DNA from: Candidatus Gottesmanbacteria bacterium RBG_16_52_11
GTDB lineage: Bacteria > Patescibacteriota > Microgenomatia > UBA10105 > UBA927
Assembly: GCA_001779095.1 (NCBI GenBank)
Contig: MFJD01000004.1
Location: 116,876 to 167,329, forward strand
Reading direction: 5' to 3'
DNA: 50,454 nt
Each line of letters begins with the position of its first letter. The first letter of the stretch is position 1. Of the stretch, positions 2,346-50,454 are shown piece after piece. The notes beneath the pieces are model-generated. The model was not told the DNA's origin. It worked only from the letters and a program-made list of their open reading frames with translations, and did not search any database. The position numbers and the translations under genes were made by a program.

Positions 2346-4736
2346 ATGCAGCGATTCGGACGATACCTCCCGTTTATTCTCTTTGCGGGGATTACATTAT
2401 TCATTTTCCGCAGTTACTTCTCCAAAGGCCTGGTACCGTTTCCGGGCAATCTCCTTTCGGGATACTATGCACCGTGGTCGCATTACCGGCCGCCGGACTA
2501 TCCCAACGGCCCGGCATTCAAACCCATGGGATTTGACAACCTGCGGATATATTATCCGTTGCGGTCCCTTGCCGTCGGGCAGCTGAAGGACGGCAGGCTA
2601 CCGCTTTGGAATCCGTACAATTTTTCGGGAAACACGCTCCTGGCCACCTACCAATCGGCGGTTTTCCATCCGATGTCGTTCCTGTTTTTTCTGTTGCCCC
2701 AGATCGATGCCTGGTCAGTAATCGTGATACTCCAGCCTCTCCTGACCTGCTGGTTCACTTACCTTTTCCTGAGACGATTCCTGCCGGTGCGGTCAGGGAT
2801 TTTCGGTGCGGTGGTATTTGCCCTGTCCGGATTCATGATTGTCTGGTGGGAAGAGTCATTCATGGCGGGTTATTCGGCACTGGTGCTGCCACTGGCTTTG
2901 TTCGCGTTTGAAAAATGGCGGGAGGAGGGAAGCAGAAGGTGGCTGGTGCTATTAACCGGCGCATTTGTCTGGAGCATACTGTCAGGCTGGTTTCAGATGA
3001 CATTCTACCTGACCGCTGCCCTTACTGCCTGGGCTGTCTACCGCAGCCGGATGCGCGGATTCATAATTGCCGCCGGATGTTTCATGCTTTCAGTATTTCT
3101 CTGCGGTATCCACCTGGTGCCGGCATTTGAAGCGTACCGCGAGAGCGCCAGAGGAACGACTGATGCCCGGTTCCTGTTTGACGGGTACCTCCTCAAACCC
3201 GAACACCTGGTTACCTTCCTGGTCCCCGATTACTTCGGCAGTCCGGCAACATACACATACTTCGGGAACGGATTTTACTATGAACGGGTGGTATGGTTCG
3301 GCATCATTCCCCTGATGCTTGCCCTTTATGAGCTGGTCCGGTGGAAGTCACTGGCGCGGAAAGAACGATTTTTCGGCATCATGTTCCTGGTCTGCCTGTC
3401 GCTCGGGTTGTCGCTGCCGACGACATTTTTCCTGCTTTACCAGCTGAAACTGCCTCTTCTGTCAGTGATCATCCCGTCCCGGATATTTTACCTGTCCACG
3501 TTTGCGGGGGTTGTGCTTTCCGCATTCGGAATGGAGCGTTTTCTGCGGGAGCGCCGGATTGAGGATGTCCTGATCACTTATGCCATCTTCGGGACGGCAC
3601 TGACGGTTGCCTGGTACGTGCCGGTCACCATGGTCCGGGAGTTTACCGGCCGGATGGTGGAGGCGGAAATTATGACCCGCAGCCTGATGATTCCGACGGT
3701 TTCCTTCGGCATCGGACTTTTTTCCATGTGGCTTTACGCCAACCTGAAACGGTTTACGCCGTTACTGTACGGCATACTTCTTCTCGTGACCGTCGCCGGT
3801 TCACTGGTTTTTGCCAACAAGTATCTGTATTTTTCGGAACGCCGGTTTATATATCCTGAAACGCCGGTCATGGAAAAGATCCGCGAAATGGCCGGTTTTA
3901 ACCGTTTCTGGAGCTTCGGGCGGGGATACACGATCGAAAATAATTTCGCTACGATGCACCGTCTGCAGTCGCCCGAGGGTTACGATTCGTTTTATATCCG
4001 GCGGTACGGGGAGCTGCTCCATGCCGCAGCCAACGGGGGACAGTACAGTGCGGAAATACCCAGAGCCGACGCGCTGATACCGCAAGCTGAACATATCGGC
4101 AGCGTACCGGAAAACCATTACCGCTGGCGGCTGCTTAATCTGCTCGGAGTAAAATATATCGCCGGAGCAACCAGCCCGCTGCCGGAATTTGCAGCCGCTG
4201 ATCCGGATCCGGCACTCCTTCAGCCGGTCTGGCGGGACAGAGAGTATTCGATCTGGGAAAACCGGGAAGCCCTGCCGCGGGCGTATCTGGTGGGCGAAGT
4301 CCGGAATATTACCGGAGACCAGAAGATCCTGGACTTCCTGTTTGATCCGAACACGGATCTGCGAAAGCAGGCGGTTCTGGAAGGGTACGGCGGCATGGGG
4401 TCGGGAAGCGGGGGAACGGCGGAGATTACCAGGTTTGAGCCCAACGACGTGACGGTATCCACCGTTGCTACCCAAGGCAGCATACTGATACTGTCGGATG
4501 CCTACTACCCGGGTTGGCGGGCGGAAGTGGACGGGAAACCGACAAAACTCTACCGGGCTAATTACGCTTTCCGGGGAGTGGAAGTTCCGGCCGGGACCCA
4601 TACGGTTACGTTTTTATACCGGCCGGTAGCCTGGACTATTGGGCTGGCGCTATCCGGAACCGGGATATTATTATCCGGCGTGACTCTCTATTTATATTCC
4701 CGGCGGCGGAGGGATCCGCGAAGCAGATATGTTTAA
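2346..4736 (+). CDS. YfhO-family polytopic membrane protein (GT-C-like glycosyltransferase)
   Basis: 796 aa. The N-terminal region (GFDNLRIYYPLR...LPLWNPYNFSGNTLLATYQSAVFHP) and the C-terminal region (ILILSDAYYPGWRAEVDGKPTKLYRANYAFRGVEVPAGTHTVTFLYRP) match my memory of the YfhO family. Many TM helices lie between them. Confidence 0.85.
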   Translation: MQRFGRYLPFILFAGITLFIFRSYFSKGLVPFPGNLLSGYYAPWSHYRPPDYPNGPAFKPMGFDNLRIYYPLRSLAVGQLKDGRLPLWNPYNFSGNTLLATYQSAVFHPMSFLFFLLPQIDAWSVIVILQPLLTCWFTYLFLRRFLPVRSGIFGAVVFALSGFMIVWWEESFMAGYSALVLPLALFAFEKWREEGSRRWLVLLTGAFVWSILSGWFQMTFYLTAALTAWAVYRSRMRGFIIAAGCFMLSVFLCGIHLVPAFEAYRESARGTTDARFLFDGYLLKPEHLVTFLVPDYFGSPATYTYFGNGFYYERVVWFGIIPLMLALYELVRWKSLARKERFFGIMFLVCLSLGLSLPTTFFLLYQLKLPLLSVIIPSRIFYLSTFAGVVLSAFGMERFLRERRIEDVLITYAIFGTALTVAWYVPVTMVREFTGRMVEAEIMTRSLMIPTVSFGIGLFSMWLYANLKRFTPLLYGILLLVTVAGSLVFANKYLYFSERRFIYPETPVMEKIREMAGFNRFWSFGRGYTIENNFATMHRLQSPEGYDSFYIRRYGELLHAAANGGQYSAEIPRADALIPQAEHIGSVPENHYRWRLLNLLGVKYIAGATSPLPEFAAADPDPALLQPVWRDREYSIWENREALPRAYLVGEVRNITGDQKILDFLFDPNTDLRKQAVLEGYGGMGSGSGGTAEITRFEPNDVTVSTVATQGSILILSDAYYPGWRAEVDGKPTKLYRANYAFRGVEVPAGTHTVTFLYRPVAWTIGLALSGTGILLSGVTLYLYSRRRRDPRSRYV

Positions 4737-49039: not shown

Positions 49040-50454
49040 ATGTTCATCCATATATTCATCCAACGCGTCAGGTCTTTGAAACATCATCTGCCCGCGGTAT
49101 TTCTTGCGGTTTTTTTCGTAACAGTCGGCATGTACTCAACCGTAGCCCCATACTTCGCCAAACCTGAGGGAAGGGGATATACCTGGCATGAGGGATTCAC
49201 CGATGATTACATCGGATACGTTTCCTACGTCAAGGAAGGGATGTACGGAGCCATCACCTTCAGTGTCCGGTCACTGCCCAAACCCCAACCGGCCACTACG
49301 GCCCAGCTTCTTTATATCGTGACGGGGAAAATCGGATCACTTTTGAATCTGACTGCTCCGGTTGCCTACCACGCCGCCCGGACAGTCCTCGGTCTGGCTT
49401 TCTGGCTGGCTATGTATCTGTTTATACGATCAGTCACGGGTAGCAGGAGAAAGGCAATTGCCGTCAGTTTCATGGCATCTCTGTCGGCGGCAGCCGGATG
49501 GTTCAGCATTGTCAACGGCCAGCTGACATACCGGACCTTTGCGACATTCGGTTTTACCGAAAATACCGCCCTCAGATTTGCCAGCCGCCCGCACTATCTC
49601 TTCGGCGCTTTCCTTTTCCTGGTAATTACCATGCTTCTTTCGGGACGCAGCAGAAACCGCCGGACCGTCATTGCCGTATGCGTCCTGTCCGTAGTACTGG
49701 GAACGGTGCATCCGTCATTTGCAACTCTGCTGGCGGCAGTTACCGGGATCATGGGAATTATTACGTGGCTTAAAAATAAGCGGGTGCTGACTCCTTATAT
49801 CCCGGCACTGCTCGGACTCGGGTTGGGATTATCGCTGTCGTACTGGTCGACACACCAATATCCTTATACCTGGATCCTGTCATTTGAGGAATATGTCCGC
49901 AATGAAGTCCTGTCCTCAGGGACCATCCGGGGAGATATCATTTCTTTCGGACCGATGCTGTGGCTGGGACTGCCGGGACTTATCATCCGTGTGCTCCGGC
50001 GGGGGAGAAAGGAAGCGGATATTTTCCTGCTTGTCTGGCTCGTAGTTCAGCTCTTATTCTTTTTCCATTTCTACCGGTATCTGCGGACTGAACGGGTGCG
50101 CTATATCCAATCACTTTACTTCATTCCCATGGCATACGGGACATATGTGCTGCTTGCGGATGCTGCTGTCCGGCTGGGTAAACGGATTCTGCCGGCGGGT
50201 CTGATTATCCTTTCAGCGCTGACGTTACCCACCCTTTACCAGGGATTTAAAACCAGCTTGTATAGGCATACGGACTACAGTAATTTCAACCAGTTTGTAT
50301 TTCCGACCCGGGCACAGCTTGAGGCTTATGCCTGGCTGGACCGCAATACCCCGGTAGAAAGCACGGTTACGGCATCGTACGAAGCGCTTAACCATATCAT
50401 CATTTACAGTCATAATTATGTCGTCGGCAACAAACAGGGTTGGCCGTACTGTGA
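49040..50454 (+). CDS. Polytopic membrane protein, unclassified GT-C-like, 3'-truncated by the window edge
   Basis: This ORF is not in the track because no stop codon is reached. I translated it by hand from the ATG at 49040: MFIHIFIQRVRSLKHHLPAVFLAVFF...GYTWHEGFTDDYIGYVSYVKEGMYGAITFSVRSLPKPQP... It stays open to position 50454 and aligns by eye with the N-terminal region of the 47407 gene. Confidence 0.65.
   Translation, partial: MFIHIFIQRVRSLKHHLPAVFLAVFFVTVGMYSTVAPYFAKPEGRGYTWHEGFTDDYIGYVSYVKEGMYGAITFSVRSLPKPQPATTAQLLYIVTGKIGSLLNLTAPVAYHAARTVLGLAFWLAMYLFIRSVTGSRRKAIAVSFMASLSAAAGWFSIVNGQLTYRTFATFGFTENTALRFASRPHYLFGAFLFLVITMLLSGRSRNRRTVIAVCVLSVVLGTVHPSFATLLAAVTGIMGIITWLKNKRVLTPYIPALLGLGLGLSLSYWSTHQYPYTWILSFEEYVRNEVLSSGTIRGDIISFGPMLWLGLPGLIIRVLRRGRKEADIFLLVWLVVQLLFFFHFYRYLRTERVRYIQSLYFIPMAYGTYVLLADAAVRLGKRILPAGLIILSALTLPTLYQGFKTSLYRHTDYSNFNQFVFPTRAQLEAYAWLDRNTPVESTVTASYEALNHIIIYSHNYVVGNKQGWPYC

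Follow-up and report, generated by a model that had tools for sequence, protein, structure and literature searches.

Thirteen predicted GT-C glycosyltransferases cluster beside a putative lipid-linked pentose donor module in a Microgenomates genome

Nearly half of the window analysed here, i.e., the whole 50,454-bp stretch of contig MFJD01000004.1 (positions 116,876 to 167,329), is occupied by 13 open reading frames (ORFs) for giant membrane proteins that appear to be glycosyltransferases of the GT-C type. We number them C1 to C13 in window order. An initial annotation, made from the sequence alone, had placed all 13 and estimated that they take up about 24.3 kb of 50.45 kb; each ORF is present at those coordinates without internal stops, and the summed length is 24,247 bp (48.1% of the window). 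Hidden Markov models (HMMs) of the 13 families gave no further matches among the window ORFs beyond C1-C13. The genes lie in at least three separate clusters of mixed orientation, C13 is truncated by the window edge, and the starts of C7, C11 and C12 can be set only to within 6-20 codons. The predicted assignments, with the evidence for each in brackets, are as follows:

2346..4736, + strand: C1, YfhO-family GT-C, 796 aa (Pfam YfhO, E = 7.7e-18, 64.7 bits against a cutoff of 28.5)
4733..6298, - strand: C2, GT-C fold, no family model, 521 aa (AlphaFold and Foldseek)
6346..8358, + strand: C3, STT3/DPY19-like GT-C fold, no family model, 670 aa (AlphaFold and Foldseek)
22172..23728, + strand: C4, PMT_2-family GT-C, 518 aa (Pfam PMT_2, 2.1e-9, 38.2 bits against 26.1)
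23743..25524, - strand: C5, PMT_2-related GT-C, 593 aa (hhalign to C4 and C11)
25528..27201, - strand: C6, YYY-related GT-C, 557 aa (hhalign to C3, C12, C8 and C4)
27238..28926, - strand: C7, remote PMT_2-like GT-C, 562 aa (hhalign to C4 and C5)
28996..31314, + strand: C8, DUF2298/Chlor_Arch_YYY, 772 aa (Pfam DUF2298, 3.3e-90; TIGR03662, 2.4e-131)
39200..41797, - strand: C9, YfhO-like GT-C, 865 aa (homology to C1)
41902..43848, - strand: C10, GT87/ALG6-like GT-C core with C-terminal NPCBM/CBM51, 648 aa (NPCBM, 2.4e-33)
45540..47240, - strand: C11, PMT_2-family GT-C, 566 aa (Pfam PMT_2, 4.9e-8, 33.8 bits against 26.1)
47407..49005, + strand: C12, YYY-related GT-C, 532 aa (hhalign to C6, C3, C8 and C4)
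49040..50454, + strand: C13, C12 paralog, 471 aa visible (phmmer against C12, 1e-14; hhalign against C6)

The 13 proteins share a common architecture. A crude Kyte-Doolittle count finds 7-13 hydrophobic segments in each, and the AlphaFold models of C2 and C3 contain more membrane helices (at least 11 and about 15, respectively) than the hydropathy count, so the ten or more helices originally proposed for every protein are roughly right without being proven for each of them. C2-C8 and C10-C12 end in soluble tails of 136-202 aa beyond the last transmembrane (TM) segment, in line with the C-terminal domain that had been proposed for most of the set; C1 and C9 carry instead a large loop domain before the closing TM segment.

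Structural models were obtained for C2 and C3, and on these models we are confident that both adopt a GT-C fold. The AlphaFold (AF2) model of C2 (predicted local distance difference test, pLDDT, 92.7; predicted TM-score, pTM, 0.92) has exclusively GT-C enzymes as its top nine Foldseek matches in the Protein Data Bank (PDB), namely ArnT (5f15, probability 1.00, TM-score 0.53), AftA, ALG3, PglB, AglB and AftB. The model of C3 (pLDDT 93.5, pTM 0.94) likewise returns GT-C enzymes for all of its top 18, i.e., STT3 of oligosaccharyltransferase (OST) complexes (2.6e-9), DPY19 (3.5e-8), AglB, PglB and AftA. Transporters come next for both proteins, at probabilities below 0.15 and TM-scores of ca. 0.1, against 1.00 and 0.4-0.53 for the GT-C matches, and identity to the solved GT-C enzymes is 10-16%. 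The C-terminal domain of C3 (residues ~530-670) matches the C-terminal globular domain of the archaeal AglB-S2 (3vu0; probability 1.00, TMt 0.5). A WWDYG-type OST motif was found in none of C1-C13, and for this reason we do not file any of them as an oligosaccharyltransferase; we therefore reject true oligosaccharyltransferases despite the fold similarity of C3.

Curated family models reach only four of the TM cores (cutoffs: Pfam YfhO, PF09586, 28.5 bits; Pfam PMT_2, PF13231, 26.1 bits; TIGR03662, 300.25 bits), these being C1 (YfhO), C4 and C11 (PMT_2) and C8 (DUF2298/TIGR03662), the last a full-length member at 439.7 bits. C1 additionally has weak NCBIfam matches to PgfM1/PgfM2, C4 matches the Agl23-like NCBIfam model TIGR03663 at 8e-7, and C9 matches Pfam YfhO at 9e-4 (18.1 bits, below the cutoff). 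The remaining eight cores (C2, C3, C5, C6, C7, C10, C12 and C13) fall below every curated Pfam and NCBIfam threshold. C5 has sub-threshold matches only and does not pass the PMT_2 cutoff; the cores of C2, C3, C6, C7, C12 and C13 have no Pfam or NCBIfam match of any kind, and C3, C6, C12 and C13 all fail to match the TIGR03662/DUF2298 model. The initial annotation could name no family for at least six of the 13, and this proved a conservative figure. PDB sequence-profile searches with the family alignments of C2, C3, C7, C10 and C12 retrieved nothing for the TM cores. Member-by-member Pfam scans revealed no consistent family for C2 or C7, with a few relatives of each matching Wzy_C weakly, and gave only weak DUF6541 matches for the C3 family. 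In database searches these families are of appreciable size (190 hits for C2, 66 for C3, 33 for C12 and 310 representatives for C7), and the named members of all four are “hypothetical proteins” of Patescibacteria, almost none of which has a Pfam assignment.

More distant relationships emerge from profile-profile comparison. All-against-all BLAST and phmmer detect just three pairs among the 13, C1/C9 (phmmer 4e-7; the C9 HMM matches C1 at 3.6e-9), C3/C6 and C12/C13, and since no other pair is detectable there was no recent burst of duplication; a recent paralog expansion is thereby ruled out. All-against-all hhalign comparison of the 13 family profiles (values are probabilities) joins 12 of them into one network at 88-100%, with C10 outside. 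One group forms around the YYY protein C8, with C3-C6 at 100%, C6-C12 at 100%, C6-C13 at 99.8%, C6-C8 at 98.9%, C3-C12 at 98.4% and C8-C12 at 97.8%; C8 itself is a remote relative of C3, C6, C12 and C13 (94-99%). A second forms around the PMT_2 proteins (C4-C5 100% over 458 columns, C5-C11 99.4%, C4-C7 97.7% over 435 columns, C4-C11 97.4%, C5-C7 95%), and the two are connected through C4-C12 (97.2%) and C4-C6 (96.8%). C5, C6, C7, C12 and C13 are in this way tied at 95-100% to proteins that either pass a curated model or were modelled. In comparison with each of the 13, scores of 0-2% were obtained for five non-GT-C proteins of the window, among them a major facilitator superfamily (MFS) transporter and a UbiA prenyltransferase, which argues that the links are not an artefact of hydrophobicity. 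As part of the joint explanation developed below, we consider it likely that the proteins fall into four groups: YfhO-like (C1, C9), PMT_2/ArnT-like (C4, C5, C7, C11, with C2 remote), an STT3/DPY19-like YYY supergroup (C3, C6, C8, C12, C13) and GT87/ALG6-like (C10). C6, C8, C12 and C13 are placed in the STT3/DPY19 branch because they are homologous to C3, and by this homology the DUF2298/YYY family would gain a GT-C context of the STT3/DPY19 kind.

An acidic residue after the first helix of the core is invariant in the families with deep alignments. It is present in every aligned sequence for C2 (D35/D36, 81/81), C3 (D149, 66/66), C4 (D33, 48/48), C6 (D49, 63/63), C8 (E134/D138, 80/80), C10 (D52, 60/60), C12 (D39, 38/38) and C13 (D56, 38/38), and position D48 of the HPDER motif of C5 is acidic in 78/78; the alignments of C1, C9 and C11 are too shallow for a conservation call. 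C3 D149, C6 D49 and C8 D138 occupy homologous alignment columns, and C7, for which no motif had been listed earlier, has E94 in “SGETTQEI” at the equivalent position, conserved in at least 90%. The distribution of charges fits an outward-facing motif loop for most of the 13, and it also places the C3 and C8 motifs outside. The earlier proposal of an acidic motif in the first extracytoplasmic loop of almost all the proteins holds insofar as all 12 quoted motifs are present, but not to the letter: in C3 and C8 some three additional N-terminal helices, and then the first TM helix of the core, come before the motif, and the motifs chosen for C1 (D64) and C9 (D38/D41) fail to align with each other. 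In the C2 family the whole FGCFDDC string is nearly invariant, and four cysteines are invariant or nearly so, C33 and C37 (within that string), C453 and C480, a pattern that points to disulfides on the extracytoplasmic side, or to a metal site, right where the active site is presumed to lie.

C10 combines its TM core with a carbohydrate-binding module (CBM). Its C-terminal domain matches Pfam NPCBM at 2.4e-33 and the CBM51 structures 2vmg (2e-24) and 7js4 (1e-37). The core is tentatively placed as GT87/ALG6-like through its relatives, of which, judged by E-value, 33/60 match Pfam GT87 (best 9e-6) and 6/60 Alg6_Alg8 (best 4.5e-5). The GT-C reading of the whole set is thus upheld by curated models for C1, C4, C8 and C11, by Foldseek for C2 and C3, by hhalign for C5, C6, C7, C9, C12 and C13, and by the matches of relatives for C10. 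The opposite outcome, a set made up mostly of transporters or of membrane proteins of other kinds, did not occur.

The GT-C genes are clustered with a gene resembling UbiA-type polyprenyl-phosphate phosphoribosyltransferases (PPPRS; decaprenyl-phosphate homolog, DPPRS), which starts a string of genes upstream of C4:

17296..18591, - strand: FAD-dependent oxidoreductase, divergent from the PPPRS-like gene (Pfam Amino_oxidase, 7e-33; NCBIfam PRK07233, 1.2e-115)
18698..19630, + strand: UbiA-family PPPRS/DPPRS-like protein (NCBIfam decaprenyl-phosphate phosphoribosyltransferase, 1.7e-46, 158.7 bits)
19630..20214, + strand: HAD-like soluble ORF of 194 aa, candidate phosphoribose phosphatase (motifs)
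20219..21352, + strand: GT4 (GT-B, Leloir-type) glycosyltransferase (Pfam Glycos_transf_1, 1e-24)
21303..22175, + strand: S-adenosylmethionine-dependent methyltransferase, overlapping the GT4 stop and the C4 start (Pfam Methyltransf_11, 2e-22)

The PPPRS-like gene, the HAD-like ORF, the GT4 gene and the methyltransferase form, with C4 as the last member, a single same-strand string with overlapping stops and starts; the start of the HAD-like ORF overlaps the PPPRS-like stop codon. Residues 75-83 of the UbiA-like protein (NDVIDVRYD) correspond to the NDxxDxxxD catalytic motif, and in the HAD-like ORF D13-x-D15, K128 and E142-D143-N144-x-D146, i.e., the four-motif pattern of HAD enzymes, are invariant in 17 homologs. 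The presence of these two genes upstream of C4 suggests a lipid-linked pentofuranose donor, and the string looks like a split-gene version of a donor module made of PPPRS and a phosphoribose phosphatase (PRP). For the FAD oxidoreductase a role as sugar epimerase, sugar oxidase or furanose-forming flavoenzyme is conceivable and would make it a candidate for a sugar-modifying step.

Similar gene clusters recur in related genomes. Among species-representative genomes, the closest relatives of C8 come from Candidatus Gottesmanbacteria and other Microgenomates metagenome-assembled genomes (MAGs), at ~50% identity, and complete relative genomes measure ~1.0-1.2 Mb. Many public MAG records that contain close homologs of this locus are titled “uncultured Gammaproteobacteria bacterium”, which looks like a systematic mislabel. 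Searched with the 13 family HMMs, 49 YYY-anchored loci of 22 kb, taken from different genomes, yielded 171 GT-C-like ORFs (1.6 per 10 kb, 29% of bases) and 15 C10-anchored metagenome loci yielded 75 (2.3 per 10 kb, 42% of bases), the density in the window being 2.6 per 10 kb; a GT-C-like gene was the anchor in choosing both sets of loci (80 in all for the YYY anchor), so that neither can serve as an unbiased background. With distance from the YYY anchor the GT-C-like fraction declines from a maximum of 0.32 to 0.07 at 8-10 kb, a drop which indicates that the genes are locally clustered. Relatives repeatedly show the order C5-(C6)-C8 ... C9-C10-(C11)-C12/13-like: C5 occurs in 54/80 and C6 in 40/80 YYY-anchored loci, C9 orthologs adjoin C10 in 6-7 Gottesmanbacteria loci, and orthologs of each of the paralogs are 38-57% identical across several genera of the Candidate Phyla Radiation (CPR). 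The donor genes travel along, with homologs of the FAD oxidoreductase in 58 of the relatives' loci (adjoining the YYY gene where maps were inspected, e.g., L006 7376-8860 and L013 8038-9378), of the HAD-like ORF in 41 and of GT4 in 29. One relative locus (L016) has the compact order FAD oxidoreductase-UbiA-HAD-GT4-methyltransferase-C5-C6-C8...C9-C10-C11. Within the window itself GC content is even (0.48-0.58) and housekeeping genes of bacterial type (S1, RadA, Rho and two tRNA-Ala) are interspersed; on these grounds and for the conserved synteny we reject a horizontally acquired island.

In the explanation that we consider the probable one, the organism, a Gottesmanbacteria-like member of the Microgenomates (CPR/Patescibacteria), would possess 13 anciently diverged glycosyltransferases of the GT-C fold. 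Each enzyme, seated in the cytoplasmic membrane, would receive one sugar, carried on polyprenyl phosphate, at the outer leaflet, the invariant Asp serving as catalytic base or metal ligand, and would pass it to an acceptor held by an extracytoplasmic loop or the C-terminal domain. Donor use, catalysis and transfer to the acceptor are here modelled on characterised GT-C enzymes (PMC8035078, PMC11127046). Acting one after another, the enzymes would assemble or decorate an envelope glycopolymer, surface glycoproteins or both. The UbiA-type phosphoribosyltransferase and the HAD-like ORF would supply at least one of the donors, a polyprenyl-phospho-pentofuranose with ribofuranose or an epimer of it, a route suggested by the gene context and by its parallels with mycobacterial decaprenyl-phosphate-arabinose and the Citrobacter systems. 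The idea first drawn from the clustering, that a surface glycan or glycoprotein coat is assembled in steps, is plausible and finds contextual support in the donor-synthesis genes and the CBM; the NPCBM/CBM51 domain of C10 and the AglB-like tail of C3 would fit an acceptor of glycan type.

Several observations weigh against this explanation. The fold was modelled for 2/13 proteins (C2 and C3), so that the other 11 depend on profile and family links, and C10 of the window itself matches no GT-C Pfam model (E <= 0.1), its support coming from relatives. Some of the hhalign links are modest, i.e., C2-C4 (88.5%), C2-C7 (90%) and C1-C4 (89.9%, 84 columns), and the 100% obtained for C1-C9 is inflated because the C1 family alignment consists mostly of C9 orthologs. 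On the donor side, the PPPRS-like protein scores 158.7 bits where the NCBIfam equivalog cutoff is 207, the HAD-like ORF has no Pfam, NCBIfam or PDB match (as a single sequence or as a profile) and owes its assignment to motifs, and family scans recognised no GT-A polyprenyl-phosphate-hexose synthase and no GtrA, MATE or SMR flippase within the window. Lastly, in one relative the C2 ortholog sits among unrelated genes, apart from the other GT-C genes.

A possible, though disfavoured, alternative differs from this explanation in the acceptor only and supposes that their main targets, instead of a growing polysaccharide, are proteins (type IV pilins, S-layer or other surface proteins), which they would glycosylate through O- or N-linkages. 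It can draw on the best structural matches of C3, all of which modify proteins (STT3, AglB, PglB and the C-mannosyltransferase DPY19) and which include the AglB-like C-terminal domain, on the PMT_2 family being named after protein O-mannosyltransferases, and on the precedent of a PPPRS-dependent arabinofuranose route that modifies the Pseudomonas pilin (PMC11127046). However, the OST signature is missing from 13/13 proteins, the glycan-binding CBM51/NPCBM of C10 points to a carbohydrate acceptor, Gram-positive YfhO and PMT_2 enzymes decorate teichoic acids and wall polysaccharides (PMC8035078), and 13 different enzymes would be many for proteins alone.

It seems unlikely that the 13 genes, in place of successive steps of one pathway, encode partly redundant decoration modules, used as alternatives to vary a surface antigen in the manner of serotype-converting Gtr systems. 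Such modules would agree with the separate clusters and their mixed orientation, with the varying content of the relatives' loci (1 to 8 GT-C-like ORFs per 22 kb) and with the displaced C2 ortholog. Against them stand the ancient divergence of the paralogs, most pairs of which BLAST cannot detect, and the even GC and interspersed Rho, RadA and S1; moreover, the 38-57% identity of orthologs across CPR genera and their recurring order imply fixed, long-kept roles and not rapid turnover. That most of the unannotated proteins are merely hydrophobic transporters, flippases, polymerases or ligases, or structural membrane proteins is very improbable and, on the models, largely refuted for C2 and C3: eight cores do pass no curated model, PDB profile searches are blank for the TM parts of C2, C3, C7, C10 and C12, and a few relatives of C2 and C7 resemble Wzy_C, but Foldseek separates GT-C enzymes clearly from transporters for both C2 and C3, the hhalign controls are negative, and in all deep families the GT-C catalytic position is occupied by an invariant Asp.

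Returning to the reading of 13 GT-C enzymes that assemble an envelope glycan or glycoprotein, GT-C enzymes as such, YfhO, PMT_2 and three-component glycosylation are already known, and C1-C13 include uncharacterised families of a known kind of enzyme. What appears to be new is the predicted fold-level assignment of several CPR families, the probable link of DUF2298/YYY to STT3/DPY19-like GT-Cs, and the finding that Microgenomates keep dense clusters of about a dozen GT-Cs beside a PPPRS-like donor module. In our literature search GT-C gene clusters were nowhere described for CPR or Microgenomates; the only mentions were isolated ones and concerned GT87 or Dol-P-Man synthase genes from other CPR phyla. 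Essentially nothing is described of the cell envelopes of CPR bacteria, which make up a large and almost uncultivated share of bacterial diversity. If the complete relatives of ~1 Mb are a guide, the ~24 kb spent on 13 GT-Cs amounts to roughly 2% of the genome, and such an outlay on clustered genes conserved in Microgenomates implies an elaborate and selectively important surface glycan or glycoprotein coat. Sizeable families of “hypothetical proteins” (C2, C3, C7 and C12/C13) thereby receive a fold-level annotation, and it becomes possible to test for a lipid-linked pentofuranose donor route in bacteria other than Actinobacteria and Proteobacteria. A bolder and rather doubtful extension is that Microgenomates build, entirely outside the cytoplasmic membrane, a mycobacterium-style envelope heteropolysaccharide containing pentofuranoses, by means of a dedicated set of a dozen or more GT-Cs, several of them from CPR-only families, which the PPPRS, HAD and FAD oxidoreductase enzymes would supply with donors. 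If true, this would be an unrecognised layer of the cell envelope, built in spite of genomes of ~1 Mb, and it could mediate attachment to hosts.

Other features of the window were noted in passing. Its lowest-GC stretch contains a pair of neighbouring tRNA-Ala genes, with anticodons GGC and CGC (34946-35129), and the 3' end of a 242-aa ORF that we could not annotate (34238-34966) overlaps the first of them by ~20 bases. Transporter-like genes comprise an MFS gene (35241-36371) and a 162-aa ORF with four predicted TM segments (1019-1507), which has the size of GtrA/SMR-type flippases and no family match; these two are the sole flippase candidates in the window. A soluble 464-aa ORF (9884-11278) weakly matches C45 autoproteolytic acyltransferases/hydrolases (2e-5, below cutoff), and a 382-aa ORF (15155-16303) gives a partial arginase-family match (3.5e-6). 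The ORFs at 37061-38002, 38121-38618, 38770-39180, 43950-44507 and 44612-45373 have no Pfam or NCBIfam match; the last two are located between C10 and C11, and 44612-45373 encodes a Pro/Gln-rich protein with a single TM segment.

Several known systems resemble parts of this locus. C8 is a full member of TIGR03662/DUF2298 (2.4e-131), a family for which we know of no described function, and C3, C6, C12 and C13 are remote relatives that fail the model. To STT3, AglB, PglB and DPY19 the likeness lies in the best structural matches of C3, with its AglB-like C-terminal domain, and it would extend by homology to C6, C8, C12 and C13; the differences are the lack of WWDYG in all 13 proteins, an identity of 10-14% and the absence of any PDB sequence-profile match. 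Gram-positive bacteria possess multi-component transmembrane glycosylation systems such as CsbB/GtcA/YfhO and GtlA/GtlB, as well as PMT_2-type GT-Cs (PMC8035078). With these the locus has in common YfhO and PMT_2 GT-Cs, 8-13 TM helices, the acidic loop motif and an expected decoration of wall polymers outside the cell; unlike them, it has far more GT-C paralogs, and genes for a partner GT-A (CsbB/GtrB-type) and a GtrA-type flippase are not in the window.

The donor string has its closest counterparts in systems that decorate glycans with pentofuranoses outside the cytoplasm, in which a PPPRS fused to a HAD phosphoribose phosphatase works with a flippase and a GT-C carrying a CBM (Kelly et al. 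2024, PMC11127046); that of Citrobacter youngae consists of a PPPRS-PRP fusion, a MATE flippase and a GT136 GT-C with a CBM (PMC11127046). As in C. youngae, the PPPRS-like UbiA gene directly adjoins a candidate HAD-like phosphatase and shares its string with a GT-C, one GT-C (C10) has a C-terminal carbohydrate-binding module, and the predicted fold of C2 is ArnT-like. In contrast to C. youngae, the PPPRS-like and HAD-like proteins are encoded by separate, overlapping genes, the window has no recognisable MATE or SMR flippase, and there are 13 GT-Cs instead of one.

In mycobacteria, arabinogalactan and lipoarabinomannan (LAM) are assembled with the UbiA-type DPPRS Rv3806c, a phosphatase, DprE1/E2 and the GT-C enzymes Emb, AftA-D and PimE/GT87. 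This DPA/Emb/Aft pathway is akin to the pentofuranose systems just described. The locus departs from this scheme in that no DprE1 or DprE2 homolog was recognised in the window, where the conserved neighbour is an unrelated FAD enzyme of amine-oxidase type; the candidate phosphatase is HAD-like and not Rv3807c-like, identity to the solved enzymes is 10-16%, and the host belongs to the CPR, with complete relatives of ~1 Mb. What it shares with mycobacteria is the occurrence in one organism of many different GT-Cs and a UbiA-type polyprenyl-phosphate phosphoribosyltransferase-like protein with the NDxxDxxxD motif, together with AftA and AftB among the structural matches of C2 and C3 and GT87 matches in the C10 family.

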